Positions 5,415 to 59,647 of a DNA stretch of 64,000 nucleotides are shown in pieces. The notes beneath the pieces were generated by a model. That model did no database searches. It was not told the origin of the DNA and worked only from the letters and a program-made list of their open reading frames with translations. Every line of letters begins with the position of its first letter. Within the stretch, counting starts at the first letter, position 1. The DNA is from an uncultured Thermoanaerobaculia bacterium (GTDB taxonomy: Bacteria; Acidobacteriota; Thermoanaerobaculia; Thermoanaerobaculales; Sulfomarinibacteraceae), in NCBI GenBank assembly GCA_964440565.1, contig CAYTTB010000004.1, positions 33,260 to 97,259 on the forward strand, given 5' to 3'. The position numbers and the translations under genes are program-made.

Positions 5415-5493
5415 GAACCGGGGACGGGCGTGGCCGGGCGCCCGTGGCGGTGCCCGGCCCGCCGGTTCCCTCCACGTAGGGAGGGGCGGAGCG

Positions 5494-5709: not shown

Positions 5710-5739
5710 CCGCAGCCCGGGAGAGAGGAGGAGCGCACG

Positions 5740-8277: not shown

Positions 8278-8290
8278 GGGGAGACCACCC

Positions 8291-9557: not shown

Positions 9558-9588
9558 CCCGGCGCCGGGCCGGGAAGGGAGCGTGGAC

Positions 9589-10248: not shown

Positions 10249-10337
10249 GTGCACCGTGCAGCCCACCACGGCCGTGTCTCACTCCCGCCGTCCGGGGTAC
10301 TACCTTGCGAGGAGGCGTGACGGTGGACCCGACGAGG

Positions 10338-10811: not shown

Positions 10812-10956
10812 CTGCGAAGGATACCAGCGAACGAAGCGCCATGGCCCCACCCCGGGGAGAGCGCGGCGAGGCCGCCGTGCCCATGGCGAGACGTCAACCG
10901 GCACCTTCCCCGGATCGGGGGATGTGCATGGGAACTCACCCCAGAGGAGGGGAACC

Positions 10957-12473: not shown

Positions 12474-12527
12474 CGACCGTGCCGCGGCGCGCGGTGCGGT
12501 GCCGTGCGCCGCACGAAGGAGGGAGAC

Positions 12528-12929
12528 ATGGAGTACGCCATCGTGAAGGAGCTTCCCGGGATCGGGTACGACGACGCCGTGGGGAGGGTCCGCGAGGCGC
12601 TGGCGGAGGAGGGGTTCGGCGTCCTCACCGAGATCGACGTGAAGGAGACCCTGAAGAAGAAGCTCGGGATCGATACCCGGAACTACGTCATCCTCGGCGC
12701 CTGCAACCCGCCGCTCGCGCACCGGGCACTCGAGGGAGAGCCTCTCATCGGCGTTCTCCTGCCCTGCAACGTGGTGGTCATGGAGCGCGAGGGGGGCGGC
12801 TCCACCGTGGCCGCCTTCAAGCCCACCGCCGGCTTCTCGCTGGTGGACAACCCCGAGGTGGCACCCATCGCCCGCGAGGTGGAGGAGAGGATCGAACGGG
12901 TCCTCGGCAGGCTCGCCGAGGACGCGTGA
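12528..12929 (+). CDS. DUF302-domain protein
   Basis: ATG at 12528 after GAAGGAGGGA. MEYAIVKELPGIGYDDAVGRVREALAEEGFGVLTEIDVKETLKKKLG...YVILGACNPPLAHRAL is the typical DUF302 pattern. Confidence 0.8.
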   Translation: MEYAIVKELPGIGYDDAVGRVREALAEEGFGVLTEIDVKETLKKKLGIDTRNYVILGACNPPLAHRALEGEPLIGVLLPCNVVVMEREGGGSTVAAFKPTAGFSLVDNPEVAPIAREVEERIERVLGRLAEDA

Positions 12930-12945
12930 GGGCGAGGGGACGGCG

Positions 12946-14049
12946 GTGCCGCGGCGAACCGTCTCGCCGCGAACGGGGGGCTTCCACGGGAGAGCGCACG
13001 CCGCGCGCGCGGCGCGCCACGCCGCTGCCGGCGCCCTCTTCGGGTACCTCGTGCTCCACCCCGTGGCGATGGGGATCTTCCGCGTCCTCGACGGTCCGAG
13101 CGTACCCGGCAGCCCGGGCGAGACGTTCCTCCGGGCCCTGGGCGAGGCGTTCCATCCTCACATGCTGCCGATGGGCCTTCTCTTCGCCCTGTTCTGCTCC
13201 GCCATCGGAGCGGCCGACGGCTGGCTCCGCGGCCTCGTACTGGAGCAACGGGCGCAGCTCGCGCGGCTCGTCCGGCAGCTGGAACGCGAGCGCCACCAGC
13301 TGGTCCGCCTTCACGAAATGCATCGCCGTTCCACCCGATTTCTCGTCCACGACCTCAAGACGCACATCGGCTGCATCCTCGGCTTCGCGGAGCTGCTGGG
13401 CACCTCGCCAGCGATCGCCGGAGACCGCGAATGCGCCGACGCCGTGGCGCGGATCACGCGCCAGGCCAAGAAGCTGATGGACGGGGTCACCGACCTCCTC
13501 GAGCTCGCCAGGATGCAGGAGGGGCACCGACCGGCCCGGGAGCAGGTGCCCGTCGCTCGCCTCCTCGACGAGGTCCGCGAGGCGTTCCTCCTGCCTCTCC
13601 ACGAGGGACGCCTGCGGATCGAGGCCCCGGACCGGGAGGCCGCACCGCTCCTGGTCGCCGGCGACCGCAAGCTCCTGCTCCGGGTACTCTGCAACCTCGT
13701 GTCGAACGCCCTCTCGCACGCGCCGGAGGGTACAAGGGTGAAGCTGACCGTCCGCCTCGACCCGGACGACCCGGAGTGGCTCGAGTTCTCGTGCAGCGAC
13801 CGCGGCCCCGGCGTCCCCCCGGAGGCGCTGCCCCACATCTTCGACGAGTTCCGCTCGGGCAGGGGCTCTTCCGGTCTCGGCCTCGCCTTCTGCAAGGCAG
13901 CGGTGGAAGCCCACGGCGGGACCATCCAGTGCCAGAGTTCCCCCGGCGAGGGGTGCACGTTCACGGTGCGGCTGCCCCGTACCGTACCGAAGAAGGAGGC
14001 TCCACATGAGCGACACACCGAGGCCACACACGATCCTCGTCGTCGATGA
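12946..14049 (+). CDS. sensor histidine kinase (HisKA + HATPase_c)
   Basis: H-box FLVHDLKTHIGCILGFAELL, N-box LLRVLCNLVSNALSHAP, G-boxes DRGPGVP and GSSGLGLAFCK. Confidence 0.85.
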   Translation: MPRRTVSPRTGGFHGRAHAARAARHAAAGALFGYLVLHPVAMGIFRVLDGPSVPGSPGETFLRALGEAFHPHMLPMGLLFALFCSAIGAADGWLRGLVLEQRAQLARLVRQLERERHQLVRLHEMHRRSTRFLVHDLKTHIGCILGFAELLGTSPAIAGDRECADAVARITRQAKKLMDGVTDLLELARMQEGHRPAREQVPVARLLDEVREAFLLPLHEGRLRIEAPDREAAPLLVAGDRKLLLRVLCNLVSNALSHAPEGTRVKLTVRLDPDDPEWLEFSCSDRGPGVPPEALPHIFDEFRSGRGSSGLGLAFCKAAVEAHGGTIQCQSSPGEGCTFTVRLPRTVPKKEAPHERHTEATHDPRRR

Positions 14050-14422
14050 CGATCCAGACCACGTGGCGCTCGTGGCCGGCATCCTGCGCCGACACGGTTA
14101 CGCGGTGCTCACCGCCGACCGTGCCGACGAGGCGCTCCGCCTGGCCACCGAGCGAGCGCCGGACGCGGCGGTGCTCGACGTGATGATGGACCATCTCGGC
14201 GAGGGATTCGACCTGGCCCGCTCGCTTCGCCAGCAGCACCCGGGGAGCGACCTCCCCGTCGTGTTCCTGACCGGTATGGACGCGGTGTTCGACCTTCGAT
14301 CCGAGATCGGCGAGGACTGGATTCCCGGCGACCGGGTGCTCACCAAGCCCGTCAGCGCCGGGGCGCTGCTCGGTGCCCTCGCCGAGCTACTGCGCGATGC
14401 GACGACGGGAGGGAACCCATGA
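14006..14422 (+). CDS. single-domain response regulator (REC only)
   Basis: AAGGAGG RBS. ILVVDDDPDHV...AAVLDVMMD...VVFLTG...TKP receiver motifs. Confidence 0.85.
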   Translation: MSDTPRPHTILVVDDDPDHVALVAGILRRHGYAVLTADRADEALRLATERAPDAAVLDVMMDHLGEGFDLARSLRQQHPGSDLPVVFLTGMDAVFDLRSEIGEDWIPGDRVLTKPVSAGALLGALAELLRDATTGGNP

Positions 14423-14832
14423 GCCCCACGGCCCGAAAGGCACTCGTCATCGAGGACGACGCCGACTTCGCGGCCTACCTGGCCGCTGTCCTGCGGCGTG
14501 ACGGGATCGAGCCGGTCGTGGCGAGAACCCTCGAAGAGGCGAGGCGCGCCCTCCTGAGCTCCCGATTCGACCTGGTAACGCTCGATCTGGACCTCGGCGG
14601 GGCCTCCGGCGGGGAGCTGCTCCTCGAGCTCCGCGCGGACCCCGAGCTGGCCCGGATCCCCGTGATCGTCGTCTCGGGGGTGCCGGTGGAGGACCCGAAG
14701 GTCCGGGCGCTGGTCGAGGCGTTCGCCGACCGTCCCTCCCTCGCGCTCCCCGACGCCTGCGTCGAGAAGCCCGCACCCCCGGAACGCCTCCGCCGGGCGG
14801 TGGCGCTGGCGACGGGTCGCGCCGCCGTGTGA
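14419..14832 (+). CDS. single-domain response regulator (REC only)
   Basis: ATGA overlap with the previous gene. ALVIEDDADFA...DLVTLDLDLGG...PVIVVSG...EKP. Confidence 0.85.
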   Translation: MSPTARKALVIEDDADFAAYLAAVLRRDGIEPVVARTLEEARRALLSSRFDLVTLDLDLGGASGGELLLELRADPELARIPVIVVSGVPVEDPKVRALVEAFADRPSLALPDACVEKPAPPERLRRAVALATGRAAV

Positions 14833-14854
14833 GGAGCCCGCCCTCGCCTCACGG

Positions 14855-14886
14855 CCGTCCCTCGTGAAGGCGTTCACGAGGGACGG
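14855..14886 (+). terminator. perfect 14-bp stem-loop (CCGTCCCTCGTGAA-GGCG-TTCACGAGGGACGG) 23 nt after the stop
   Basis: Arms verified as exact reverse complements. No T-tract. Confidence 0.5.
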
Positions 14887-15017
14887 TGCCGTTCGGACCC
14901 CGTCAGTCATCGTATCGTCGCGACTCCGGGCCAGTCGGGTGTCTCGATCGCCCTCCTCCGTGCACTAGCTCGTGACGGCAGGCACATCCCTGCCGATCTC
15001 GACGACGGGAGGTCGCG

Positions 15018-15743
15018 ATGGGAGCGAAGACTCGACGGTTCCTGGTGCTGGCCGCGGCGATGACGCTCGCCGCCCCCGCGCTCACGCTCGCCCACGGCGG
15101 AGCGATGGGCTTCGGGATGTCGGGGGGCATGGGCATGGGGATCCCGGTGGTGGCCGACGACGGCACCGTCCTGGTGATCGAGGGCGGGGCCATGGGCTGG
15201 AGCTGGTCCGATGCCGGATCCGCCCTGGTGGCTCTCGACCCCTCCGGAAGCGAACGATGGCGGATCGCCCTCGACGGTGTGTCCCCCATGACGGTCGTTA
15301 CCGAGGGCGATCTCGTGGTGGTGGCCACCCTCGATCACGACGGGATGATGGGGAACGGCGATTCCGGGGGCGGAGACGGTCACATGGGCGGCGGAGGCAG
15401 CGGCCACGGAGGCATGGGCGGCCACGGCATGAGCGTGAGCCCGCAGGACGTACCCTCCCGGGGCGGCGCCGCCCTGGTGGCCATCGACCTGGCCACCGGC
15501 GTGGAGCGGTGGCGGTTCGAGGCCGACGGCGCGATGGTGACGGCCCGGCTCGCACCCGGGGCCTCCATCGTGTACGCCGTGGTCCACGCGTCGGGGCACG
15601 GCATGGGCCTCGGGGGCTCACCCATGGGCCAGGGCGACGCCGAGGGTGACAGCTCCACCACGCTCTACGCGCTCGACGCCGCCTCCGGCGCCGTTCTCTG
15701 GAGCCGTGACCTCGCCCCCGGCGGCGGCGGGATGATGTGGTGA
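15018..15743 (+). CDS. secreted PQQ-like beta-propeller repeat protein with Met/Gly/His-rich loops (paralog 2)
   Basis: GGGAGG RBS. Signal peptide ...APALTLAHG. Same blade pattern as 10957..11694 (LVAIDLATGVERWRFEA, LYALDAASGAVLWSRDL). Loops GFGMSGGMGMG, GHMGGGGSGHGGMGGHGMS, GHGMGLGGSPMG. Confidence 0.65.
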   Translation: MGAKTRRFLVLAAAMTLAAPALTLAHGGAMGFGMSGGMGMGIPVVADDGTVLVIEGGAMGWSWSDAGSALVALDPSGSERWRIALDGVSPMTVVTEGDLVVVATLDHDGMMGNGDSGGGDGHMGGGGSGHGGMGGHGMSVSPQDVPSRGGAALVAIDLATGVERWRFEADGAMVTARLAPGASIVYAVVHASGHGMGLGGSPMGQGDAEGDSSTTLYALDAASGAVLWSRDLAPGGGGMMW

Positions 15744-15810
15744 ACTCTCCGGCGCCGGCCGCGGCCTCCGGCCCGCGGCCGGCGCCATCTCGTCCCCCGA
15801 GGAGGCGCGG

Positions 15811-16119
15811 ATGCTTCGACACCACCCCCATCGGGCCCTCGTCGGGCCGGTCCTCGCTCTGGCCGCCACGCTGACCGCCGTCACGGGATGCACGTACGGC
15901 CGCTGGCCGTGGCATCACGGCTGGGCCGCGGGGCCCGCGTGCCGACCGGCACCTCGCCCCCGCGGCGAGGTGCCGATCCGTGCCGCCACGGCACACGCGG
16001 TGCCCGGGCCCTCCGTGACCGAGGGCGTGGCCACCATCGCGACGGCGCGCCCGCCCGAGAGCGGACCCGCCGCCGGGACCGCGACACGGCCCGCCCGGGG
16101 CACGGCCGCCGGCCTCTGA
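15811..16119 (+). CDS. putative small lipoprotein (His/Trp/Pro-rich)
   Basis: GAGGAGG RBS 7 nt upstream. Lipobox-like LTAVTG-C. No family recognised. Composition is partly low complexity, so weak. Confidence 0.35.
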   Translation: MLRHHPHRALVGPVLALAATLTAVTGCTYGRWPWHHGWAAGPACRPAPRPRGEVPIRAATAHAVPGPSVTEGVATIATARPPESGPAAGTATRPARGTAAGL

Positions 16120-36911: not shown

Positions 36912-38406
36912 GCGACCGCCCCCAGGCGTCGGTGAGGACCAGCCTGAGCTCGTACCCCCGGGAGGGATCCGCCCCGCCCCAGGAGCCGAGCTCGCCCCCC
37001 TCCACTGGCTCCGCCCCCTCGCCCAGGACGGCCCCCACCCTCGCCCCCGTCGGCACCGCCTCGAGGCGCCAGCGCCCACCGGAGGCCGGCGACCCGGGGG
37101 CTCCGTACAGCCCCGCCCAGCCGAGCAGCGTCACGCGCTGGCCCGGTCCCGGAGGGACCGCCGGTGGCGGGGCCAGGGCGGCGAGGCCGATCACGCCCTG
37201 GCCGAGCGCCTCGATCCGCGAGCCGACCTCGCTCTGGGCGATCAGTATCCGCGCCCGGTCGTAGGCTCCGAACCGGGTCCAGAGCCCCTCCGGGTCCTGC
37301 GGGTACGGAAGGGCCCGGCTCGCCTCGAGCACCAGCGTGCCGTCGCCGGTGGCCTGCACGTCGCAGGTGAAGGTGGACCCGCGCACCGCCGCCCACCCCC
37401 CGTCCTGGACCCCGAAGTACCCCCCCGACCCGTCCACGGTGGTGTCGGCCATGTCCAGCCGCGCACGCTCCATGACGATGACCTCGCCGAGCAGGCAGTC
37501 CCGCACCCGGACCCGGGCGTCGGCCTGCGGGTACAGGTTCCAGGTGTCGATGGTGGCGTTCTCCAGCACCAGCCGGCGGTCGGGGAGCGCCAGCTCCCGG
37601 TGAGCCACGGTCTCGCCGTCGCGGAGGCCCTCGATCTCGGTCGAGGTGGGCAGGTGCAGCCCCACCACCATCCACTGCTCGGGCGGGATGTCGCGCAGCG
37701 TCAGGTCGCTGCCCGCGCGGACCAGGAGCGGCCACAGCGTGACCTGGCAGCGGCGCATCTCGATCCGCTCGGGAATCCCCTCGGACCCCGGTGGCGGGAA
37801 GCTCCACCGCTCCACGAACCCGGGCAGCGGCGGGCTGTACACCGCGCGGCTCCCCGCGGGAAACTCCGGCCACACCCACAGCTCGCCCTCGCCACCCTCG
37901 CGCGGGATGTCCTCGAGCACCATCGTGGCGGCGTCCTGGACGATGCACTCGAACTGGCCGGAAAGCCGCCGCGCCTCGAGCCGTGAGGTGTCCATGGCCA
38001 GGAGCTGGGCGAAGCCGAACCCCGTGTCCTCGACGGTGAGGACGCCATCACCGCCCGCGATGAGCGCGTGCTGGACCCCGGAGGGGACGCGGTAGTCGCA
38101 GCGGCGCACCTCGACCGTGCCCCCGTACCAGGCCACCAGCGAGTACTGACCGTGGTACCGGCTCTCGAACTCGATCACCGAGTCCTCGAGCACGATCCGT
38201 CCGCCGGAGAGGGCGTAGACGCTTCCGGAGAACCGGACCCCCGGCTCGCCGACGCCCACGACCCTGAGCTCGCCGTCGCCGATCACCATCACCTCGCCGA
38301 GGTCGGTCGGCTCGGTGATGGTGAGGGGCCCGGTGACCACCAGCGGCTCCTGTGCGGCGGCCACGGCGGCGCAGGCGAGCACGGCGGCAAGCGCGGCGCG
38401 GGTCAC
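36799..38406 (-). CDS. secreted hypothetical protein, beta-helix-like repetitive fold suspected
   Basis: GTG 38406 after GGGAGAA. Signal peptide VTRAALAAVLACAAVAAAQEP. Recurring short beta-strand/turn pattern (VLEDS.IEF, VLTVEDTGF, LVLENATID). No named family recognised. The 3' end overlaps the convergent methyltransferase gene by 113 nt. Confidence 0.5.
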   Translation of the reverse strand: MTRAALAAVLACAAVAAAQEPLVVTGPLTITEPTDLGEVMVIGDGELRVVGVGEPGVRFSGSVYALSGGRIVLEDSVIEFESRYHGQYSLVAWYGGTVEVRRCDYRVPSGVQHALIAGGDGVLTVEDTGFGFAQLLAMDTSRLEARRLSGQFECIVQDAATMVLEDIPREGGEGELWVWPEFPAGSRAVYSPPLPGFVERWSFPPPGSEGIPERIEMRRCQVTLWPLLVRAGSDLTLRDIPPEQWMVVGLHLPTSTEIEGLRDGETVAHRELALPDRRLVLENATIDTWNLYPQADARVRVRDCLLGEVIVMERARLDMADTTVDGSGGYFGVQDGGWAAVRGSTFTCDVQATGDGTLVLEASRALPYPQDPEGLWTRFGAYDRARILIAQSEVGSRIEALGQGVIGLAALAPPPAVPPGPGQRVTLLGWAGLYGAPGSPASGGRWRLEAVPTGARVGAVLGEGAEPVEGGELGSWGGADPSRGYELRLVLTDAWGRSLTARWPVPAAPPPWWPRTAGPRPTARRAPAGRARTPH

Positions 38407-38676
38407 GCTCCCATTCTCCCGCCGCCCGGGGCGCGGCGCAAACGGGCCCCGGTCCGCACCGGGCCCGAGGCTCCGGCGCCCGCGTCCGGGGATCGTCTCC
38501 CCGCGGCGGGGAGGGCCCGCCCGCCGCGCGCGCCGGGCCGCCCGACCTCCGGCGAGCAGGGAGCCGCCCGCCGCGCGGGCGGGAGGCGCCGCGGCGCTCG
38601 CCGCGAGCGGAGGAAGCCCCCTCCCGCCGCGCCCGGCCTCGCCCGCTCGGGTACGGCGTGCCCCCCGATCGTCCCG

Positions 38677-38759
38677 CGAAGACTGTCCCCATCTCGGCGC
38701 CCGGCGAAGACTGTCCCCATCTCGGCGATCGTCCGACGAAGACTGTCCCCATCTCGGCG
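38677..38759 (+). repeat. three identical tandem copies of the 23-nt motif CGAAGACTGTCCCCATCTCGGCG (38677-38699, 38705-38727, 38737-38759); degenerate 4th copy near 38770
   Basis: Counted base by base. Offsets are 28 and 32 nt. Lies in the 500-nt intergenic region upstream of the DoxX gene. Confidence 0.9.
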
Positions 38760-38905
38760 CCCCGACCGGGAGTGTCCCCGGTTCATCCGGCGGTGGAGGG
38801 TGTCGCCGGCGCGCGGGCGGCGGCCGTCGCGAATGAAACGCGATCCCGGTTCCACGCATACCAGCCAGCGAGCACCGCGCCTCTCCGGCGCCACGGGAGA
38901 CACCC

Positions 38906-39406
38906 ATGAATCCGTACCGCACGCTCCGGACCGCCGCCGAACGCCTCCGCGGCCTCGCCCGCCGCCTCGCCTGGCTCGCCCCGCTCGCCACCCGCATCGT
39001 TCTGGGGCTCGCCTTCGTCCAGGCAGGGCTCGGCAAGTTCCAGCACTTCGATGGAACGGTCCGGTACTTCTCGAGCCTGGGGATACCGGTCGCCACGTTC
39101 AGCGCCGGCCTCGTGGCGACGATGGAGCTCGTGGGGGGCGCGGCCCTCCTCGCGGGGTTCCTCTCGCGCCTCATGGCCTCCTGCCTGGCCGTGACCATGA
39201 TCGTGGCCCTGCTCACCGCCGAGGGCGACGCCTTCCTCCGTTCCTGGAGCCCAGGGGCCGACATCGCCCCCAGCGACGTCCTGCCGTTCCGTTTCCTGCT
39301 CCTCCTCGCCTGGGTGGCGCTCTACGGCCCCGGGACGGCGAGCCTCGACGCGCTGCTGGCGCGATGGCGGGGCCGGGGTGTAACCGGGGCCGCCCCTCCG
39401 GCATAG
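38906..39406 (+). CDS. DoxX-family membrane protein
   Basis: 166 aa. LAPLATRIVLGLAFVQAGLGKF...ATMELVGGAALLAGFLSRL. Four TMs. Confidence 0.85.
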   Translation: MNPYRTLRTAAERLRGLARRLAWLAPLATRIVLGLAFVQAGLGKFQHFDGTVRYFSSLGIPVATFSAGLVATMELVGGAALLAGFLSRLMASCLAVTMIVALLTAEGDAFLRSWSPGADIAPSDVLPFRFLLLLAWVALYGPGTASLDALLARWRGRGVTGAAPPA

Positions 39407-39483: not shown

Positions 39484-39945
39484 ATGAAGAGTTCACGCAT
39501 GAAGGACGTCCTGATCCGCACCGCCATGGCCGGCATGCTCGCCGGGGCCGGGCTGGCCGTCCCCGCCGGCGCCCACGCCGACCCGGCCCCCGCCGCACGC
39601 AACGGATGCGGCGGGAAGGACGGCTGCGGCAGCCAGAGCCAGAAGCGGGGCGAGAGGAGCGCGGAGGTCCACGTCTGCCGGGGCCTCAACTCGTGCCGGG
39701 GGAAGGGCAACTGCAGGTCCGGCGACAACGGCTGCGCCGGCAAGAACTCCTGCAAGGGCAAGGGTGGCTGCGCCAGCGCCGAGGCCCGTCACGCGTGCAA
39801 GGGCCAGAACGCGTGCAAGGGGCTCGGCGGGTGCAGGAGCGGTGACAACGGCTGCGCCGGCAAGAACTCCTGCAAGGGCAAGGGTGGCTGCGCGGTGCCG
39901 CTGCACAGGCCCCCGCAGAAGGACGGCGAGAAGAAGGCGGCGTGA
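39484..39945 (+). CDS. Sec-signal Cys-rich RiPP precursor, bufferin-like (two 6-Cys modules; 14 Cys total)
   Basis: ATG 39484 is 5 nt after GAGAGGGAGAGG (last 153 aa of the artefactual ORF 38068..39945). Signal peptide [33 protein letters not shown]. Core modules [32 protein letters not shown] and [32 protein letters not shown]. Immediately upstream of DUF692 and DUF2063 genes. Confidence 0.8.
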
Positions 39946-50502: not shown

Positions 50503-50704
50503 CGGTGTGGGTCATCGGAGCGGACGATGCGGTGGCACGCGCCCGGCGGAGCGCGCCCGCCGCGGGGCCTCGCCGGCCCACCCGTCGGCGCGTCCGCTCT
50601 CTCCTCGCTCGTCGCGACGCGCAGGTCTCCCTCCCACGGCGGCACGTCGCTCACGGAAACGAGCTCCCCGACGAGGCCGCCGGCGCCTCGCTCCGCGCCG
50701 GCTC

Positions 50705-50820
50705 GAGCGACCCGACGCCCGGGGGAGCGGGCCTGCACGCGCGGGGAGTGTCCCCATTTCGCGAGCGACCTGACGCCTGGGGGAGCGGGCCTGCACGGGA
50801 GGGGAGTGTCCCCATCTCGC
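50705..50820 (+). repeat. two tandem 58-nt units (50705-50762, 50763-50820), each ending GGGGAGTGTCCCCATYTCGC
   Basis: Aligned by hand. Five differences: C/T at three single positions plus CGC vs GGA, which differs at 2 of 3 bases. Each unit holds the GGGGA-GTG-TCCCC palindrome and a GCCCG-N6-CGGGC hairpin. Confidence 0.9.
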
Positions 50821-50888
50821 GCCGCCTCGGCCGCGGATGACGGACCCCGGCACCGCGAGGGGGCGCCGGGACGGCCGATAATCGTCCC

Positions 50889-53018
50889 ATGGACCGGGCA
50901 GGCGGGAGCGGTACCCGTGGCGACCTGCTCCGGCTCGGCTTCGCCGCCGCGGTGGCGCAGTCGGTGCTGGTGCGCGAGGGGATGAGCGCCTTCGCCGGCT
51001 CGGAGCTCGCCTGGGGGCTGGTGCTCGCCACCTGGCTCCTGGGGATGGCGCTCGGCGCCCGCGCCGGGGCGGCCGCTCGCGGAGGGCGGAACGCGGCGGC
51101 GGCGCCGGCCGCGGTGATCCTCCTCGCCGCGGCGGGCACGGTCCTGCTCCGGGCGGTGCCCGCCCTCGCCGCGGGTGTCGCCGGCGAGACCGCTCCGGGG
51201 TGGCGGGTGGCGTGGGCGTGGGTGGTGGCGGTGCTCCCCGCCGCCGCGGCCGGCGGGTGGGCGTTCCCGCACCTCGCCGGGCGGCTCGCCTCGGGCCCCG
51301 GCGGGGCGTACGCGCTCGACGCCGCCGGCGGGCTCGCCGGGGGCCTCGCCTTCACCTTCCTCCTCGCTCCGCACGGCTCCGCGGCGGCCCTCGCCGCGGC
51401 CCTGGGGCTCGTCCTGTCCAGCCGCTGGCTCGGCCGCCCTCTGCTGGCCCTGGCCATCCTCGCCCTCGCGCTGGCCGCCGCACGCCCGGCGGGCGAGGTG
51501 CTGGCGGCCGCCACCTGGAGGTGGTCCCGCCATCCCGGAGCGCTCGCCGCCTGGGCGGAGACCCGCCACCAGCGGCTCGAGCTGGCGGCATCGGAGCCGC
51601 GCGCGGTGTACGCCGACGGCCGCCTTCTGGCCACGGCGCCGGATCCGTGGCTCGCGGCCGTCCGGGGCCATCTGCTGGCCCTCCTCCATCCGGACCCGCG
51701 GCGGGTGCTGGCAGCGGGCGGACTGGTCCGCGGGGTCGTCCCCGCCCTGCTCCGACACCCGCTGGAGCGGCTCGACCTGGTGGAGGAGGATCCCCGCCTG
51801 GTGGAGCTGCTGCCCCGCTGGCTGGACGGGGGCCTCGCGACCACGGTGCGCGACCCGCGCGTGCGCCTCCACCGGGAGCCCGTCGCGCTCCTCTCCGGCC
51901 GCGGGCGCTGGGACCTCATCCTCCTGCTGGGCCCGGACCCGGCGTCGCTCAGGGCCAACCGCACGCGCACGGAGGAGCTCCTCCGCCGATGCCGGGAGCA
52001 CCTCGCTCCCGGCGGGCGGGTGGTGGTCCGGGTCGGGGCCCCCGACACGTACCTGGGCGGCCCGGGGGGGCGTCTCCTGGCGACCCTGTACGCCACCGTG
52101 CGGGCGGTGTTCCCCCACGTGACCGCCCTCCCCGGCGAGGCCGTGCTCCTGGTGGCGGGCGCGGAGCCCGTCGCGGACGCGGCCGACCCCGCGGCGCTCG
52201 CCGCCCGCTGGCGCGCGCGCGGCATGGCGGACCCGGTGTTCGCGCCCGAGCTGCTCCCCACGCTGGTCGAGCCCTCCCGCCAGCGCGCGCTCCAGCGCTG
52301 GCTCGAGGCGCACCCCGGTCCGCCCAACCGTGCCGCCCACCCCACCGCCCTGCTGCCCGCGTCGGCTCGGGCCGAGGGCCGGGGGGCCACCAGGGTCGCC
52401 GCCGCGCTCTCCCGCCTGGAGCGGGTGCGTCCCGCCACGCTGGCCCTGGTCCTCGCCGCCGCGGCCGCCGGCGTGGCGGCCCTGGCGCTGGCCCGCCGTG
52501 CCGCCGCCGGTGCCGCAGCGATGCTCGGGGTGGGGTTCGCGGGGATGGTGTGGTACCTCGCCGGTCTCGCCGCCTGGCAGTCGCTGCGAGGCGCGGTGTA
52601 CGCCGAGATCGGGGCGCTCTCGGCGGCGTTCATGGCCGGCACCGTGGCCGGCGCCGCGCTCTCCCACCGCTGGCGGGCGCCCGAGCGGCGCCTCCCCTGG
52701 GCGCTGGCTGCCGGCGTCGCCGTCTCCGCGGCCCTCGCGGCGGGCGTCCCCTTCGCCACCCCCTGGGCCGTCCCGCCGCTGCTCGTCGCCGCGGGGATCG
52801 TGCCGGGTGTCGCCTTCGCCGGCGCGGCGCGGCTCGTGGACCCGGAAAGGGCCCGGCGCGCCGCGGCCGGGGGGTTCGCCGCCGACGAGGCGGGCGCCGC
52901 CGTGGGCGCCCTGGTCACCGTCCCCCTCATCGCCCTCGTCGGCGTGCCCGCCGTCGCCGCGGCCGCGGCGACGCTGCTGCTGGCCGCTCTGCCCGGCACC
53001 TCCCGCCACGGCCGGTGA
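50889..53018 (+). CDS. polytopic membrane protein fused to a spermidine-synthase-like (class I MTase fold) domain
   Basis: 709 aa. About 7 N-terminal and about 5 C-terminal hydrophobic segments flank RVLAAGGLVRGVVPALL...LDLVEEDPRLVELL...WDLILLLGPDP...LAPGGRVVV. Confidence 0.7.
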   Translation: MDRAGGSGTRGDLLRLGFAAAVAQSVLVREGMSAFAGSELAWGLVLATWLLGMALGARAGAAARGGRNAAAAPAAVILLAAAGTVLLRAVPALAAGVAGETAPGWRVAWAWVVAVLPAAAAGGWAFPHLAGRLASGPGGAYALDAAGGLAGGLAFTFLLAPHGSAAALAAALGLVLSSRWLGRPLLALAILALALAAARPAGEVLAAATWRWSRHPGALAAWAETRHQRLELAASEPRAVYADGRLLATAPDPWLAAVRGHLLALLHPDPRRVLAAGGLVRGVVPALLRHPLERLDLVEEDPRLVELLPRWLDGGLATTVRDPRVRLHREPVALLSGRGRWDLILLLGPDPASLRANRTRTEELLRRCREHLAPGGRVVVRVGAPDTYLGGPGGRLLATLYATVRAVFPHVTALPGEAVLLVAGAEPVADAADPAALAARWRARGMADPVFAPELLPTLVEPSRQRALQRWLEAHPGPPNRAAHPTALLPASARAEGRGATRVAAALSRLERVRPATLALVLAAAAAGVAALALARRAAAGAAAMLGVGFAGMVWYLAGLAAWQSLRGAVYAEIGALSAAFMAGTVAGAALSHRWRAPERRLPWALAAGVAVSAALAAGVPFATPWAVPPLLVAAGIVPGVAFAGAARLVDPERARRAAAGGFAADEAGAAVGALVTVPLIALVGVPAVAAAAATLLLAALPGTSRHGR

Positions 53019-53101
53019 GCCGGACGGCAGCCCGCTCCCACCCCGGACCGCCACGCGACCCACCGCCGGGGACCGCTGTCCCCACCGCAGCCCGCGCATG
53101 T

Positions 53102-53183
53102 GAGAACACTGTCCCCACCTCGCTCTCCCCACCCCGGGGGAGAACACTGTCCCCACCTCGGGGGAGAACACTGTCCCCACCTC
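53102..53183 (+). repeat. three tandem copies of GAGAACACTGTCCCCACCTC (53102, 53140, 53164) plus a degenerate copy at 53076-53086
   Basis: Counted base by base. Offsets are 38 and 24 nt. Lies in a convergent intergenic region. Confidence 0.9.
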
Positions 53184-53426
53184 CCGCGGCGTCCCGCCAC
53201 CGGCGGCATCGCCTCCGCACCGCCGCGCGCGACGGCGAGGTCCGCCGGCCGTCCCGGTTCCGGAGGGTGGCCGTCCGCGGGCCGGGATCCGACGCGCCGA
53301 CCGGGATGCCGCACCCCGGGATGGGGCCGGGCGCGGCCCCCCGCGAGGCGTGCCCCATCCGCGAGGCGCCGCCGGGCTCGAGCGAGCCGCTCGCCCGGAC
53401 GGCGCGCCCGCGGCGCGGAGGCGGTC

Positions 53427-54563
53427 TCACTCCCACACGCCGGGGATCTCCCGGCCGCAGTCGGGGCAGCGGCCCCGCTCGAGCCGGTTGGCGAGGATCG
53501 CGTACCCCATCCGGCGCACCAGCAGCGCGCCGCAGCCCGGGCACCGGGTGCTCTCGCCCGGGTGCCCCGGCACGTTGCCCACGTAGACGAAGTGCAGCCC
53601 CTCGGCCTGGCCGATCCTCCACGCCCGCTCGAGGGTCGCCACGGGGGTCGGGGGGAGGTCGGTGAGCCGGTAGGTGGGATGGAACCGGGTGAAGTGCACC
53701 GGGACCTCCGGCCCGAGGTTGGCCCGCACCCACCGGCACAGGTCGCGGATCTCCTGCTCGCCGTCGTTGAGCGTGGGGATCAACAGGACCACGATCTCGA
53801 GCCAGACACCCGCGGCGCGAACCCGCTCCAGCGTCTCGAGCACCGGCTTGAGGTGCCCCCGCACCACCTCGCGGTAGAACCGCTCGCGGAACGCCTTGAG
53901 GTCCACCTTGTACGCGTCCAGCAGCGGCAGCACGTCACGGAGCGGCCGCTCCTGGATGTACCCGTTGCTCACCACCACCGAGCGCACCCGCCGCTTCCGC
54001 GCCGCACGCGAGACGTCCCGCACGTACTCCCAGAAGATCGAGGGCTCCGAGTACGTCGCCGCCACCACCGGGATCCCCCGATCCGCGGCGAGCGCCGCCA
54101 TCGCCTCCGGGGGCAGCCAGTAGGCCGGCACCTGCTCCGGGCGGAACTGGGAGATCTCCCAGTTCTGGCAGAACTTGCACTCGACGTTGCAGCCGGCGGT
54201 GGCGTACGAGAGCGCCTGGGCTCCCGGCAGCACGTGGAAGAACGGCTTCTTCTCGATGGGATCCACGTGCAGCGCGCACACCACCCCGTGCACCAGCGTG
54301 TGGTAGGTGCCGCCGCGGTTCTCGCGCGCCCCGCAGCTGCCCCGCTCGCGGTCGGCCACGGTGCAACCGCGCGGGCACAGCCCGCACTCCACCCGCTTCC
54401 CCTCGAGCCTGCGGTACCACGACGCCTCGCGGGCCGGCAGCTCCTCGACGGGAATCTCGCGCCCCACCTCGAGGCGGGCCTCGGCGCGCCGGGCCCAGCA
54501 CGCGGCCATCGCCGCCGCGCCGCCCAGCGCCAGCACCTCGCGCCGGCCGAGCTTCCGGCTCAC
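53427..54563 (-). CDS. amrS: AmmeMemoRadiSam system radical SAM enzyme (AmrS) with twin-arginine-like N-terminal extension
   Basis: GTG 54563 (GTGA overlap). N-terminus VSRKLGRREVLALGGAAAMAA. VECGLCPRGC...GSCGAR, radical SAM CNVECKFCQNWEIS, C-terminal ribbon RCPGCG...RCPDCG. Confidence 0.85.
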   Translation of the reverse strand: MSRKLGRREVLALGGAAAMAACWARRAEARLEVGREIPVEELPAREASWYRRLEGKRVECGLCPRGCTVADRERGSCGARENRGGTYHTLVHGVVCALHVDPIEKKPFFHVLPGAQALSYATAGCNVECKFCQNWEISQFRPEQVPAYWLPPEAMAALAADRGIPVVAATYSEPSIFWEYVRDVSRAARKRRVRSVVVSNGYIQERPLRDVLPLLDAYKVDLKAFRERFYREVVRGHLKPVLETLERVRAAGVWLEIVVLLIPTLNDGEQEIRDLCRWVRANLGPEVPVHFTRFHPTYRLTDLPPTPVATLERAWRIGQAEGLHFVYVGNVPGHPGESTRCPGCGALLVRRMGYAILANRLERGRCPDCGREIPGVWE

Positions 54564-55504
54564 GCCCGTACCTCCCGGATCCGCGCCGGATCTCCCTCGC
54601 CCAGCCCGTACCGGGACGCGGTGGCGAGCCACCGCGGCGGCCGCTTCGCCTCGGCGAGCGTGGGAAGGCCCCGCCGCCTCCGCTCCGCCTCGATCACCCG
54701 CCACGCCCACGCGTCGGCCGCCACCGGGTCCAGCGACGCCGCCACCAGCCCGAGCCGCCAGGTCGCGCCGGGGCGGTACGCCGGGCCGCCGTCGCACTGC
54801 GCCGTTCCGCCGTCGAGGATCGTGAGCCGGAGCTTGTCCCGGATCACCGGGTGGCGCACCACGTCGGCCACGTACGGATCGCAGTTGTCGTCGTGGTACT
54901 TGTTCGGGTTGTGGATCACGCCGTACCAGTTCTTGAGCCCCGCCGACACCCCGGCGAGGTCGTGGTCCTTGACCACGCCGAAGGAGATCAGCACCGTGGC
55001 CACCTCGGTCACCACCCGGGCGTACAGCGAGCCGATGGCGCCCGAGGTGCGGATGCGCCGGTCGTAGTCGCCGTCGATCCCCACGCACCGGAACGGGCCA
55101 CCCCCGCGCCCCACCGGGTATCGCGCGCGCCGCAGCTCCCGGCTCGACCGCTCGAACACCACGATGCGCGCGGGTGGCACGCCGGCCTCCGCGAGGAGCT
55201 CCGCCAGCGCCGCCACCAGCTGCACGCGCGGCGACAGCCGTGGCCCGGCCAGGCAGTTGACCTTGATCCCCACCACGTCCTCCGGGCCCGCCAGGCGCCG
55301 GAGCGCCGCGACGGCGTCGCGTGCCCCGGCCGCCGCCGCGATCGCCCCCGCCACGGCCCGCCGCGCCGCCGCCGCGTCGAGGCGGAGCCCCGCCGGCACC
55401 CGTGCCACGCCCACCCGCCCCCGTGCGCCGGGTCGGGCCGCCCCCAGCGCCGCCCCCGCGCCGAGCAGCGCCACGAGCTCCCGCCGCGAGAGCTTCCCGC
55501 TCAC
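54560..55504 (-). CDS. DUF362-domain protein with twin-arginine signal
   Basis: GTG 55504 (GTGA overlap). VSGKLSRRELVALLGAGAALGAA. VGIKVNCLAG...VVKDHDLAGVSAGLKNWYG...DPVAADAWAWRVIE. Confidence 0.8.
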   Translation of the reverse strand: MSGKLSRRELVALLGAGAALGAARPGARGRVGVARVPAGLRLDAAAARRAVAGAIAAAAGARDAVAALRRLAGPEDVVGIKVNCLAGPRLSPRVQLVAALAELLAEAGVPPARIVVFERSSRELRRARYPVGRGGGPFRCVGIDGDYDRRIRTSGAIGSLYARVVTEVATVLISFGVVKDHDLAGVSAGLKNWYGVIHNPNKYHDDNCDPYVADVVRHPVIRDKLRLTILDGGTAQCDGGPAYRPGATWRLGLVAASLDPVAADAWAWRVIEAERRRRGLPTLAEAKRPPRWLATASRYGLGEGDPARIREVRA

Positions 55505-57018
55505 GGCCCCTCCCCGAACACCTGCGCCGTGAACACCTCGAGGCGCGCCCCGTGCCGCCACGCGCCGGGGTCGAGCCCGGCCTTGAGGGACAGACGCGAC
55601 AGGAACGTCGGAAGATCCCAGCCGGTCTCCGTGGCGACCTGGGGGAGGAAGACCGCCCGGTGCCCGCCCTTGGTCAGCACCACCCCGTGCACGCCGAGCC
55701 GGATCGCCTGCGGCCCCGGCACCCTGCGTGGCGGCGAGAGCACCGACACCTCCACCCGCACGTCGTCCAGCTCGTCCGGGGTGAGCTCCGGGAACCTCGG
55801 GTCGTGCGCGGCCATCACCGCCGACCGCACCACCTCCTCCGGAAGCGGCGAGGTGCCCACGATGGAGCCCATGCACGCCCTGAGATCCTCGCCCGCGGAC
55901 GCGCCCCGCCGCCTGAGCGTCACGAAGGCACCCGCCACGGCGGCCAGGTTCCCCTCCACCCGGTGGGCCGCGAACCACTCCGCCAGCTCCGGCCCGTGCC
56001 CGAGGTGGGTCTCGAGCGCCGCCCTCGCCAGCGCGAGCAGCGCCGCCCTCTCCGTCGCCGAGAGGCGTCCAAGCCGCGGTGGGGGCGGATCGTCGCGCCA
56101 CGCCGTCCACCGGCCCGAGAACGTCGCCGACACGTAGGTCACCACCCGCTCCCAGTCGCCGGTCACGTGACCCGAGGTGGTCACCTCCCCCACCGCCCCC
56201 GTCCCCTCGAAGGCGTGCGCCGCGAGCTCGGACAGCACCAGCAGGGGGTGCGCCCCGCACACCGTGTCCTCCGAGGCCAGCACCTGCATCCAGAACCCCG
56301 CGGGGTCCGGCGCCACCACCCGTCCCGCCGTGACGCGCGCGAGCCGCACCAGCCGCTCACCCAGGCCCCGGCGCGGGAACGGTGCGTAGCCGTACCCCTT
56401 CCCGTGGTGGGTGAAGTCGGACGACGCGAGCACCACCGTGCCGGGGCCGAGCAGCGGAACGAGCGCCCGCGCGATCGCCCGCGCCTCCCCGCGGTCGGTG
56501 CGCGGTCCCACCAGGACCGGGACGATGCGCACGGCGCCCATCGCCTCCCGGATCAGCGGCAGCTCCACCTCCAGGCTGTGCTCCCTCTCGTGCGCCGCGG
56601 CCGGGCCGTCGAAATAGGGCCTTCCCCTGAGCCGCTCGAGCGCCGCGCGATCGAGCGGCAGGTTCCCCAGCGGGGTGGCGAAGGCGTCGAGCCCCCCGGC
56701 GGGCAGCGCCGCGCCGGCGAACGCCATCCGGTGCGAGGGACCGAGCAGGATCACCCGGTCCGGCCGTGCCGCGGCGAGCGCCCGGATCGAGCGCGCCGCC
56801 AGCCGCCCCGAGAACGCCCACCCCGCGTGGGGCGCGATCGCGGCCACCGCCGGCGGCTGCTCGCCCGCCGCCTCGAGCAGGCGCCGCGCCTCGGCCCGCG
56901 CCGTCTCCGGGTCGGCGGGGTAGAACCCGCCCGCCACCGCCGGCGGGCGAACTCCCGCCGCGGCGGTCGCCCCCGCGGCCAGGACCGCTGCCACCATCGC
57001 GCCCCGCACGCGTCCCAC
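55501..57018 (-). CDS. fused Memo-like (AmrB) / AMMECR1 (AmrA) protein with N-terminal signal-like segment
   Basis: Memo part: AGGFYPADP...IAPHAGWAFSG...ILLGPSHR...SSDFTHHG. AMMECR1 part: GAFVTLRRRG...LRACMGSIVG...AAHDPRFPELTPDELDDVRVEVSVLSPP...FLPQVATETGWD. Start is ambiguous among 56997 ATG, 57009 or 57018 GTG, and 57150 ATG. Confidence 0.8.
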   Translation of the reverse strand: MGRVRGAMVAAVLAAGATAAAGVRPPAVAGGFYPADPETARAEARRLLEAAGEQPPAVAAIAPHAGWAFSGRLAARSIRALAAARPDRVILLGPSHRMAFAGAALPAGGLDAFATPLGNLPLDRAALERLRGRPYFDGPAAAHEREHSLEVELPLIREAMGAVRIVPVLVGPRTDRGEARAIARALVPLLGPGTVVLASSDFTHHGKGYGYAPFPRRGLGERLVRLARVTAGRVVAPDPAGFWMQVLASEDTVCGAHPLLVLSELAAHAFEGTGAVGEVTTSGHVTGDWERVVTYVSATFSGRWTAWRDDPPPPRLGRLSATERAALLALARAALETHLGHGPELAEWFAAHRVEGNLAAVAGAFVTLRRRGASAGEDLRACMGSIVGTSPLPEEVVRSAVMAAHDPRFPELTPDELDDVRVEVSVLSPPRRVPGPQAIRLGVHGVVLTKGGHRAVFLPQVATETGWDLPTFLSRLSLKAGLDPGAWRHGARLEVFTAQVFGEGP

Positions 57019-57146
57019 GTCACCAGTGATACTCCCGTCCCCCGCGACCCGCAAGGCCCCCTGGGCTGGAGTGTCCCCAGGAATTCCGGCTGTCGTGCTC
57101 GCTCCGCCACGGTCGGCCGGGACCGGGATCGGCCTCTCGGCCGATC

Positions 57147-58631
57147 TCATCCGCGCTCCGCCGGGCCCAGCAGCATCCGGTTGAGGGGGTCGCGGGTCTC
57201 GCCCACCGAGCTCACGCGGATGGCGGCCCGCTCGCCCACCGGGCAGCGGTGCTCGCAGATGCCGCAGCCCACGCACCGCCCGGGGTCCACGTGCGGCCGC
57301 CGCACCCGCACCCGCCGGCCCCCGTGCGTCGGCACCTCCACCTCCTCCAGCCAGATCGCCTTCGGGGAGGTGGGGCACATCTCCTCGCACACGATGCACG
57401 GCGTGGCCATCGCCCACGGCAGGCAGCGGCCGCGGTCGATGAAGGCGGTGCCGATGCGGACCGGCTGGCCGCCGTCGAGCCCCAGCTTGCGCGCCGGCTC
57501 CAGCCGCTCGATGGCGCCGGTGGGGCACACCTCGCCGCACCGGGTGCAGGCGTACTCGCACCATCCGCGGCGCATGTCGAGCCTCGGGGTCCAGAACCCC
57601 TCGACCCCCGCCTCGCCCACGGCGGGCCGGATCACGCCGGTGGGGCAGACCAGCTGGCAGAGGGAGCACTTCACGCACCGCTTCAGGAATTCGGGCTCGG
57701 GGAGCGACCCGGGCGGCCGGATCAGCTCCGCGCGGAGCGCCGTCCGGCCGCCGCCGGTGGCCTCCAGGATCGGCGCCGCGATCAGGCCCAGCAGCACCGA
57801 CCCCACCACCCGCCGCCGGCCCACGTCCACCGGCACCCGCTCCGGCAGCGGGGGCAGGAACCGGTAGGCGATGGCCCCCTCGGGGCACGGGTCCACGCAC
57901 TCGAGGCAGACCATGCACTCCCCCACCCGGTGCTCGCCGAGCGGCTCGTCCGCCCCCTGGCAGGCGAAGGTGCACAGGGTGCAGGTGGAGCAGGCGTCGC
58001 CCGACCGGTGGATGCGGAAGAGCGCCAGCCGGGCGAACACCCCCAGCAGGGCACCGAGCGGGCACAGCGCCCGGCAGAACACCCTCGGGATCCACCGGCT
58101 CGCCAGGACGATCGCGAGCAGGAACCCGGCCGCCAGCCACCCCCCCGGCACGGGGCCCCGGCCGGGTGCCACGGCCGCCAGTGCCCCGATCCCCCGCGCG
58201 AGGGCCGACAGCGGATCGAGGAGCCCGGTCTGGAGCGAGCCCATGGCCGCCGCCGCGAGCAGGAACGCCAGCACCAGGTACTTGCTCCGGTACCACGGCC
58301 GCCACCGGTTCGCCTCCCGGCTCTCCCGCCGCGAGCGCGGCGCGAGCAGGCGGCTGGCGAGCTCCTGCACCGTCCCCAGCGGGCAGATCCAGCCGCAGAA
58401 CACCCGCCCGAACACCACCGTGAGGGCGACGATCGCCAGCGCCCAGGCGAGCGCGGCGGGGAGGCGGCGCGCGGCCAGCCCCACACCCACCATCGCCAGC
58501 GGGTCGGCGTGGTGGAAGGCGGCGAAGGGGAGGTCGCGCGGGTCGCCCGCGAGCGCCCGCACCGCGAGCCAGACGAACAGGACCAGGAAGAACGCCTGGT
58601 AGACGATCCGCACCCGCCGGAACCAGGTCAT
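57147..58631 (-). CDS. membrane-bound polyferredoxin (NapH/NosR-like CX3CP TM region plus about six 4Fe-4S Cys motifs)
   Basis: ATG 58631 (ATGA overlap). FCGWICPLG and FCRALCPLG in the TM region. CSTCTLCTFAC, CMVCLECVDPCP, CVKCSLCQLVCP, CTRCGEVCP, CIVCEEMCP, CVGCGICEHRCP. Confidence 0.8.
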   Translation of the reverse strand: MTWFRRVRIVYQAFFLVLFVWLAVRALAGDPRDLPFAAFHHADPLAMVGVGLAARRLPAALAWALAIVALTVVFGRVFCGWICPLGTVQELASRLLAPRSRRESREANRWRPWYRSKYLVLAFLLAAAAMGSLQTGLLDPLSALARGIGALAAVAPGRGPVPGGWLAAGFLLAIVLASRWIPRVFCRALCPLGALLGVFARLALFRIHRSGDACSTCTLCTFACQGADEPLGEHRVGECMVCLECVDPCPEGAIAYRFLPPLPERVPVDVGRRRVVGSVLLGLIAAPILEATGGGRTALRAELIRPPGSLPEPEFLKRCVKCSLCQLVCPTGVIRPAVGEAGVEGFWTPRLDMRRGWCEYACTRCGEVCPTGAIERLEPARKLGLDGGQPVRIGTAFIDRGRCLPWAMATPCIVCEEMCPTSPKAIWLEEVEVPTHGGRRVRVRRPHVDPGRCVGCGICEHRCPVGERAAIRVSSVGETRDPLNRMLLGPAERG

Positions 58632-59647
58632 GCCGTCCCCAGCTCCTCCACCAGGTGCGGGTCGGCGTGTCCCAGTCCCCGCCGCTCGGCCTCGACCAGG
58701 AAGCCGAGGCGTCCGGGATCGAGACCCAGCAGCGCCGCCCCCCAGGCGTCGCACGCCACCGGGTCGGTGCCCGCCGCCACCGCGTCCATCCGGCGGACGT
58801 CCGCCAGCCGCCCTCCCTGCGGGCCGCCCGCCACCAGGATCCGGGTCGCGTCCACCACCGTGAGCGTGGGCCGGAAGGTGGCGGCGAGCTCGGCGATGCT
58901 CCGGTGGATGTCCTGGTGGAGGCGGGGACGGCCCGGGCCCAGGACACCGAACCAGTTCTTCATCCCCAGCGTGGCCCGCGACAGCGAGTGGTGCTTCACC
59001 ACCGGCACGTTGATCACCCGGTCCGCCTCGAGCAGCTCCCGCATCACGGAAAGCCCCGCGGCCCGCCCGCCCACGGCGGCGGGCACCAGCTCCAGCGCGG
59101 CACCGTACCGCACCTCGGCCCCGGCGGCCCGGGCCGCCGCCTCGATCCCCGAGCGGCCGAAGGCGCGCCGGGGGTCGTTGCACGACAGGTCGGCCACCAC
59201 CACCCGCCGCGCCCCGGCGGCGAGGCAGAGACGGACCAGCTCCCCCACCACCTCGGGGTTCGTGTCGGCGGCCTGCTCCGGCAGGCGGTCCCAGCCGACG
59301 TTGGGCTTGATCAGCACGGTCTCGCCGGGGCGAACGAAGCGCTCCATCCCGCCGAGGGCGGCCACCGCCCGCCGCACGTTGGCGGCGGGGTCCGAGCCCC
59401 GAGCCGCCACCGCGCGCACCGGCGCGCCGGACGTCCGCCAGTCGGGCACCGGCCGCGGCGCGGTCCCGCGCGGGCCGCGCCGCACCAGCCACGCCACCCC
59501 GCCGGCCGTGGCCCCGATCGCCGCCGCCGCGGCCGCGAGCCTCGCCACCGCCTCGCGGCGGCTCACCGGGGGCGGGTACGGCGCGTGCCCGCCGGAGCCG
59601 CCGTCCCGCTGCGAGCGCCGCCTCGCCACCGACACCTCCCGCCCCAT
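58628..59647 (-). CDS. DUF362-domain protein with twin-arginine-like signal (paralog of 54560..55504)
   Basis: VSRREAVARLAAAAAAIGA. VLIKPNVGW...VVKHHSLSRATLGMKNWFG...DPVACDAWGAALLG. GGAGGGGG RBS. Confidence 0.8.
   Translation of the reverse strand: MGREVSVARRRSQRDGGSGGHAPYPPPVSRREAVARLAAAAAAIGATAGGVAWLVRRGPRGTAPRPVPDWRTSGAPVRAVAARGSDPAANVRRAVAALGGMERFVRPGETVLIKPNVGWDRLPEQAADTNPEVVGELVRLCLAAGARRVVVADLSCNDPRRAFGRSGIEAAARAAGAEVRYGAALELVPAAVGGRAAGLSVMRELLEADRVINVPVVKHHSLSRATLGMKNWFGVLGPGRPRLHQDIHRSIAELAATFRPTLTVVDATRILVAGGPQGGRLADVRRMDAVAAGTDPVACDAWGAALLGLDPGRLGFLVEAERRGLGHADPHLVEELGTA

Follow-up and report, generated by a model that had tools for sequence, protein, structure and literature searches.

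Short intergenic repeats of bacteria fall into several described classes. REP elements and their BIME assemblies, known from Enterobacteria and Pseudomonas and mobilised by RAYT, are 20–40 nt long, G+C-rich, strictly extragenic and clustered, and often lie between convergent gene ends. A genome carries tens to hundreds of REP copies, together with a cognate RAYT (a Y1 transposase) whose gene REPs flank. MIRU-VNTR loci of Mycobacterium and the boxB part of pneumococcal BOX are built from 2–4 intergenic head-to-tail units of 24–60 nt, which occur at several loci, are oriented with the neighbouring genes, are nearly identical within a locus and differ in copy number from strain to strain. MITEs are larger (~100–400 bp) and are defined by terminal inverted repeats, target-site duplication and full-length homology, and CRISPR arrays consist of 23–50-nt repeats separated by unique spacers of similar length. 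Additionally, direct-repeat operator and iteron arrays, such as OmpR/PhoB-family sites and plasmid iterons, place several copies of a short asymmetric motif ahead of a gene, all pointing the same way and conserved in the core only.

Here we describe repeats from the window, by which we mean the whole 64,000-nt stretch of DNA analysed. Three copies of a 23-nt motif lie upstream of a DoxX gene, and we consider them, with moderate confidence, to be one locus of a short, lineage-restricted family of intergenic repeats that expands locally into tandem arrays. The family is an undescribed short interspersed repeat of an uncultured, very G+C-rich bacterium and gives no sign of a new kind of system; in its behaviour it is closest to REP, BOX and MIRU-type elements, and it fails the strict definition of each. 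As with REP elements, all three arrays of the window lie in non-coding gaps, and the presumed ancestral form and several window copies are imperfect palindromes. Hairpins form in the units of cluster 2, the leading copy of cluster 3 and the fourth unit of cluster 1. Unlike REP/BIME, the exact 23-mers are non-palindromic and form no hairpin, the copies run head-to-tail rather than alternating, the GTAG/GTGG head is missing, and neither a RAYT transposase gene nor another mobilising enzyme was found in 16–62 kb of the window. The arrays share with MIRU-VNTR and boxB the number, size and arrangement of units given above, but the whole unit is homologous between loci there and only 13–16 nt are here. 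Three near-identical public contigs, all from a single population (L119–L121; 0–2 mismatches over 4–6.5 kb), carry identical arrays with no difference in copy number. Metagenome samples with this population are JGI 3300023440 and 3300023442 and SRR9849954 and SRR9849955. A CRISPR array was rejected, the spacers being only 5 and 9 nt, as was a MITE. The first-pass annotation had offered a REP/MITE-like extragenic element as one explanation: a dispersed extragenic element does fit, while the strict labels fail on the 13–16 nt shared, the missing terminal inverted repeats and the non-palindromic 23-mers. The word dispersed draws on a small sample, since the known solid loci number three, which lie on the + strand of a single 14.5-kb stretch.

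Three tandem arrays in long intergenic gaps

The features of the arrays are listed in Table 1. The 23-mer matches the window exactly three times, always perfectly and on the + strand, and 100 dinucleotide-preserving shuffles of the window gave no match to it, even at ≤3 mismatches. The first-pass annotation of three identical motifs is therefore confirmed as three perfect copies, none of which is expected by chance. Its spacings of 28 and 32 nt hold as start-to-start distances, the gaps between adjacent copies being 5 and 9 nt, and Tandem Repeats Finder (TRF) recovered the array with periods of 28 and 32 nt. Likewise, the degenerate fourth copy that it placed behind the three is present, with its core GAGTGTCCCCGG at 38770–38781 and a small hairpin, CCGGGA-GTG-TCCC(C)GG, in its unit, and so is the longer left flank common to copies 1 and 3 (CGATCGTCC; 95% identity across 37 nt). 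The cluster is best read as two higher-order units of ~60 nt, 38666–38725 and 38726–38788, with a decayed distal half in the second.

Table 1 Repeat copies, arrays and candidate promoter in the window
Feature	Position	Strand	Remarks
Exact 23-mer, copy 1 (CGAAGACTGTCCCCATCTCGGCG)	38677–38699	+	0 mismatches
Exact 23-mer, copy 2 (CGAAGACTGTCCCCATCTCGGCG)	38705–38727	+	0 mismatches
Exact 23-mer, copy 3 (CGAAGACTGTCCCCATCTCGGCG)	38737–38759	+	0 mismatches
Degenerate fourth unit (CCGACCGGGAGTGTCCCCGG)	38762–38781	+	78% identity; 17 bits in matrix scan
Cluster 1, entire	38666–38788	+	units of 32, 28, 32 and ~29 nt; TRF score 146
Candidate σF-type ECF promoter (GAAACG-N16-CATA)	38835–38860	+	separate from repeat; same architecture in L225, L226, L234 and L237
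Cluster 2	50704–50821	+	two 58-nt units, each ending GGGGAGTGTCCCCAT(T/C)TCG; TRF score 201
Cluster 3	53064–53184	+	hairpin copy, then three GAGAACACTGTCCCCACCTC(G/C) copies spaced 38 and 24 nt
Solitary GGAGTGTCCCCA	57068–57079	+	outside the three arrays

Cluster 1 lies in a gap of 508 bp (38398–38905; from 38407 if the JGI gene call is used). On its left is a minus-strand gene for a 532-aa secreted protein without Pfam match, which starts at 38397 in our own reading and at 38406 in the JGI call; on its right, the plus-strand DoxX gene starts at 38906. According to the gene map, which was drawn from codon-position G+C and checked against Pfam, ~93% of the window is coding and this gap is its second-longest non-coding one. 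The G+C content by codon phase is flat in the gap (0.76/0.80/0.82), the values for the flanking genes being 0.93/0.56/0.75 and 0.72/0.56/0.91, and no gene is called between the minus-strand gene and DoxX on the three near-identical public contigs. These findings agree with the earlier description of the gap as unusually long and devoid of a credible ORF. A repeated peptide is excluded because the 28- and 32-nt spacings put the copies in different reading frames, and six-frame translations of the arrays matched no protein at E up to 10. In its proximal half (38398–38660) the gap reaches 86% G+C and is dense in overlapping inverted repeats such as CTCCCCGCGGCGGGGAG and CCGCCCGCCGCGCGGGCGGG; the remaining long gaps of the window are likewise ~78–81% G+C.

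The core of the motif, (A/G)(C/G)TGTCCCCAYCTCG, recurs in two further tandem arrays, clusters 2 and 3, as the first reading had claimed in placing it at unrelated loci. The three arrays fill the second-, third- and fourth-longest non-coding gaps (508, 464 and 408 bp), of which those of clusters 1 and 2 are divergent and that of cluster 3 is convergent. Cluster 2 is flanked by a PilZ gene on the minus strand and a gene for a 709-aa Spermine_synth-like membrane protein on the plus strand. Cluster 3, whose hairpin copy GGGGAC-CGCT-GTCCCC occupies 53068–53083, lies between the stop of a + gene at 53018 and that of a minus-strand radical SAM gene at 53427, the latter being part of an AMMECR1/Memo operon. 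The genes adjoining the arrays (bufferin operon, PilZ, Spermine_synth-like, radical SAM) are functionally unrelated. The Spermine_synth-like gene (50889–53018) is bracketed on both sides by same-core arrays in the same orientation. The minus strand at 53427–59647 holds an AmmeMemoRadiSam-type cluster that comprises a radical SAM protein, a DUF362 protein, a Memo-AMMECR1 fusion, a multi-4Fe-4S protein and a second DUF362 protein; the start of the fusion depends on the gene caller (517 aa in our own call, 549 aa on the public contig).

Inside one array the units are 91–100% identical. Between arrays, pairwise blastn-short comparison and MAFFT alignment of the units found sharing of only 13–16 nt, with TGTCCCCA as the invariant part of the alignment. 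The string TGTCCCCA occurs 10 times in the window against 1.64 expected, and every copy of it and of TGTCCCCAYCTCG is on the + strand. One could suppose that the arrays are unrelated local tandem duplications with a short string in common by chance, and tandem repeats with TGTCCCCAYCTC are indeed common across metagenomes (103 loci, many of them eukaryote-like CT-rich minisatellites). However, TGTCCCCAYCTCG has eight matches at ≤1 mismatch within this single 64-kb window where 0.35 are expected, a 16-column position matrix built from the copies gave no further site scoring more than 14 bits on the two strands of the whole window, and all solid core sites fall inside the ~7% of the window that is non-coding. 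By these core counts, the matrix scan and the non-coding placement, chance sharing is effectively refuted already, and we give it almost no credence. The solitary GGAGTGTCCCCA is probably a chance match and not a family member. We dropped this copy (at 57072) as a fourth locus, since 1.64 occurrences of TGTCCCCA are expected by chance and the public gene call overlaps it, by which it may fall in the N-terminal extension of Memo/AMMECR1.

The DoxX operon and its candidate promoter

The operon downstream of cluster 1 encodes DoxX, a 153-aa Cys-rich precursor, an MbnB/TglH/ChrH-family protein (formerly DUF692) and an HvfC_N protein. The gene order DoxX/precursor/MbnB-like/HvfC is the bufferin arrangement (PMC11626156). 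The buf operons of Caulobacter are under SigF/NrsF control (PMC11626156), and the Caulobacter σF site is GTAACC-N16-CGAA (PMC3511200). The precursor gene of the window (39484–39945) contains an internal 120-nt tandem duplication with 83% identity (39670–39773 and 39790–39893), which doubles the Cys-rich module and fits the 12-Cys form of the BUF_6/12Cys family.

We compared the operon with four orthologous loci (L225, L226, L234 and L237; ~75 kb), whose MbnB-like proteins are 77–80% identical to that of the window; the best MbnB homologues carry the names of Acidobacteria, Thermoanaerobaculaceae and Vicinamibacteria MAGs. By these names the bacterium of the window probably belongs to the Acidobacteriota, and an assignment to Anaeromyxobacter, which its G+C content had suggested, was dropped. 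The repeat is absent from these ~75 kb, which contain seven background TGTCCCC strings and no extended core, and the gap upstream of the operon measures 165–360 bp in the four loci versus 508 bp in the window. All five loci carry G(T/A)(A/C)ACC-N16-CA(A/T)A, a match to the Caulobacter σF site, ~50–110 nt before the first gene, namely at ~8838–8866 in L225, at ~1381–1409 in L226 and upstream of DoxX in L234 and L237. The corresponding elements of the window are GAAACG (38835–38840) and CATA (38857–38860), and the −35 element lies 75 nt beyond the last exact 23-mer, so that the promoter is downstream of the repeats. Because it is common to the five loci and 75 nt away from the repeats here, the conserved control element is separate from them. 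The operon is probably driven by this σF-type ECF promoter of its own, and the repeats, on comparison with the orthologous loci, appear as extra sequence in a longer spacer. The σF-like motif ahead of an operon with a 12-Cys precursor, an MbnB-like MNIO and an HvfC-like protein resembles the SigF/NrsF-controlled buf operons of Caulobacter. The window differs from L234 and L237 in that its ECF sigma and NrsF genes are not adjacent to the operon; in those two loci they lie divergently beside it, and in the window the gene for the 532-aa secreted protein is in their place.

The first-pass annotation proposed that the same-orientation sites are operators for a multimerising regulator of a metal-related operon. 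This operator reading is unsupported because the repeats are not conserved in the four orthologous operons, lie off the promoter, are not limited to related genes and are unphased. Specifically, the spacings across the arrays (24, 28, 32, 33, 38 and 58 nt) give no helical phasing and no common face, and those of cluster 1 alone (28, 32 and 28 nt) fail the same helix-phasing test. The matrix scan found no copy of the motif among the metal-resistance genes in the left 16 kb of the window, and none at the OmpR-type two-component system at 59.7–61.8 kb, including its promoter. The arrays are like direct-repeat operator and iteron arrays in their short asymmetric motif, single orientation, position upstream of a gene and core-only conservation, but they differ in the missing phasing, the convergent gap of one of them, the lack of conservation at orthologues and the distance of 75 nt upstream of the −35 element. 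Most likely, the 23-mers are not a switch or operator specific to the DoxX/bufferin operon, and cluster 1 is most likely carried along in the spacer as a passenger with no specific regulatory role. Eye-catching though they are, these repeats should not enter an annotation as the operator of the copper-related RiPP (bufferin-type) operon that follows them; the practical value of the analysis is that a wrong regulatory annotation is avoided and a conserved ECF promoter is flagged.

The metal-resistance island itself (1–16000) encodes an RND pump, a P-II protein, a P-type ATPase (YHS/HMBD), SHOCT, DUF2231 and DUF302 proteins and a two-component system. Its P-type ATPase gene contains an 82-nt internal repeat (6060–6252), and a His/Met-rich protein of 185 aa is encoded at 4857–5414.

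Protein-binding and RNA explanations

The main alternative to a repeat family is that the core is the site of a lineage-specific DNA-binding protein, whether a global regulator, a nucleoid-associated protein or an iteron-type binder, and that the arrays are selected clusters of monomer sites which affect transcription or architecture in several intergenic regions, including the DoxX promoter region. We regard it as unlikely. In its favour, a core of 13–16 nt kept in otherwise unrelated units, with all other bases differing, is what one would sooner expect of a protein-binding site under selection than of a mobile element that is copied; the orientation inside each array is strictly uniform; and clusters 1 and 2 occupy divergent promoter regions ahead of + genes. 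On the other hand, cluster 3 sits between convergent gene ends, where a promoter is not expected, and the six spacings share no helical face. The motif is also missing from the orthologous loci and from 210 kb of mostly Acidobacteriota loci, no regulator gene is consistently adjacent in the window or at other loci with similar arrays, and perfect identity over whole units of 23–37 nt points to recent duplication rather than site-by-site selection. In a more specific form, TGTCCCCAYCTCG would be the site of an undescribed DNA-binding protein in patchy Acidobacteriota-like bacteria, and selection would maintain the arrays as platforms with several sites each (for instance insulators, nucleoid anchors or iteron-like sites), which recur in long intergenic spacers. 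This form is quite unlikely; if true, it would explain why conservation is confined to the core and the flanks and length of the units drift freely.

We further considered that the element acts in RNA. It would then belong to a long DoxX leader and to the 5′ leader and 3′ UTR of the gene at 50889–53018, where a protein or sRNA could recognise the C-rich motif or its hairpins, or where these, like REP hairpins, could stabilise or terminate the mRNA. All solid copies share the strand of the + genes beside them, a perfect 6-bp G+C hairpin opens cluster 3 at 46 nt past the stop codon of the + gene, and the hairpins of a Thermoanaerobaculia MAG (L004) are placed just past gene ends, which is in line with such a role. 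Against it, none of the three arrays folds more stably on the + strand than shuffled sequence (z = +0.62, +0.76 and −0.97), and no structure is common to all three. Rfam gave no match in 38380–38920 at E up to 10, its sole match in the window being a tRNA, and none on eight loci with similar arrays. A consensus scan found neither a sigma-70-like promoter nor an intrinsic terminator, and cluster 1 lies upstream of the conserved promoter, so a second, unseen promoter would be needed to transcribe it. Only on the minus strand do clusters 1 and 3 fold somewhat better than shuffles (z = −2.2 and −3.25). We regard an RNA element as distinctly improbable.

Palindromic relatives and local expansion

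Relatives of the motif were searched for in several collections. A scan of genome collections with the loose pattern GASTGTCCCCAYCTCG returned at least 118 loci, nearly all of which are chance or coding matches; an apparent excess of Acidobacteriota among the listed matches was set aside, as a conserved Acidobacteriaceae gene accounts for it. In metagenomes, 103 loci have two cores 8–38 nt apart. As family members these tandem matches were rejected, many being eukaryote-like CT-rich minisatellites (L223, L133, L123), and their number is compatible with chance among all tandem repeats. The prokaryote-like loci among them have no common neighbouring gene family, and none is related to the window by blastn. 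One locus with inverted arrays 6.9 kb apart (L191) looked transposon-like and was dropped for want of prokaryotic gene content. Its arrays consist of a 25-nt unit, CATCACTCGCCATGTCCCCATCTCA, at 3747–3870 and 10686–10830, with no prokaryotic Pfam matches between them, and it is probably eukaryotic DNA unrelated to the window. A tandem-pattern scan of viral contigs and a BLAST search of plasmids gave nothing, and a literature search with the motif strings returned PCR primers only. Searches with proteins from the window's edges led only to short contigs of the population already represented.

Two known kinds of site invite comparison at this point. The ends of Tn7-like elements start with TGT and hold several directly repeated transposase sites, and A7 is a strongly conserved position of the DnaA box. 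The arrays might thus be degenerate DnaA-box clusters or a decayed Tn7/Mu-type transposon end with direct 'TGT...' transposase sites, which we judge very improbable. The string (C/G)TGTCCCCA agrees with the high-G+C DnaA box TTGTCCACA (as cited in PMC4285127) at 7/9 positions, but the mismatches fall on position 1 and A7, the conserved AYCTCG extension lies outside the DnaA box, and no dnaA or dnaN gene occurs in the annotated 16–62 kb. A DnaA-box cluster, with TTGTCCACA or TTATCCACA usually in both orientations and near dnaA/oriC, was not recovered: the match remains at 7/9 and in one orientation. The TGT-initial direct repeats are shared with Tn7-like ends; however, no inverted partner array exists on the minus strand of the whole window, transposase genes were not found in the annotated 16–62 kb, and the viral-contig and plasmid searches were empty.

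Three loci from the genome-collection scan, L004, L062 and L064, carry relatives of the motif in several copies. In 8 kb, L004 contains 15 TGTCCCC strings, including perfect hairpins GAAATGGGGAC-T-GTCCCCATTTC, which come as doublets of ~100 nt among toxin-antitoxin genes, and two Acidobacteriota MAG chromosomes (L062 and L064) carry CCGAGAACGRGACTGTCCCCATCTCGCG in intergenic DNA. The copies in L004, L062 and L064 can be read as an imperfect palindrome of 25–27 nt with outer arms CGAGA/TCTCG and inner arms GGGAC/GTCCC. In the window, the cluster 2 units retain this palindrome (GGGGAG-T-GTCCCC), the cluster 3 unit matches the L062/L064 form minus GGG in the left arm, and in the cluster 1 unit a larger part of that arm seems to be deleted. 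We infer the link between the window arrays and these palindromes from a short similarity between the window and loci that were chosen for containing the 16-mer; outside the bases on which that choice was made, cluster 3 and L062/L064 also have GAGAAC in common. With a 28-column matrix derived from all copies, 21 loci totalling 210 kb yielded no unselected copy; they comprised the four orthologous loci, 16 loci of Acidobacteriota-labelled MAGs or genomes from the GASTGTCCCCAYCTCG scan and one Anaeromyxobacter MAG. The family, if real, is therefore patchy.

A plausible course of events would be as follows. The family appears to descend from an imperfect palindrome of 25–27 nt, roughly CGAGA(A/T)YGGGGAC-T-GTCCCCAYCTCG, which is still intact at a few Acidobacteriota MAG loci, and its members would occupy long G+C-rich intergenic spacers regardless of the function of the neighbouring genes. 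The window copies would have retained the right arm, TGTCCCCAYCTCG. Cluster 2 and single copies of clusters 1 and 3 would preserve an intact left arm, and the units amplified in clusters 1 and 3 would have a truncated one. The loci would then have expanded independently, each to 2–4 head-to-tail units, presumably by replication slippage or unequal recombination. Because each locus is proposed to have expanded on its own, units would be identical within an array and differ in length and flank between arrays. Repeat families of this type are useful as strain-typing (VNTR) markers and a warning for the assembly and annotation of long intergenic spacers.

L004 contains two repeat families (1010–1240, 2140–2400 and 4790–5350), the hairpin doublets and a set of 41-nt tandem units. 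The latter contain TTGGGGACACATTGCGGGCGAGCG paired with an inverted CCCGCTATGTGTCCCC, and the toxin-antitoxin genes of this locus are of the HigB, AbiEii/AbiEi and XRE types.
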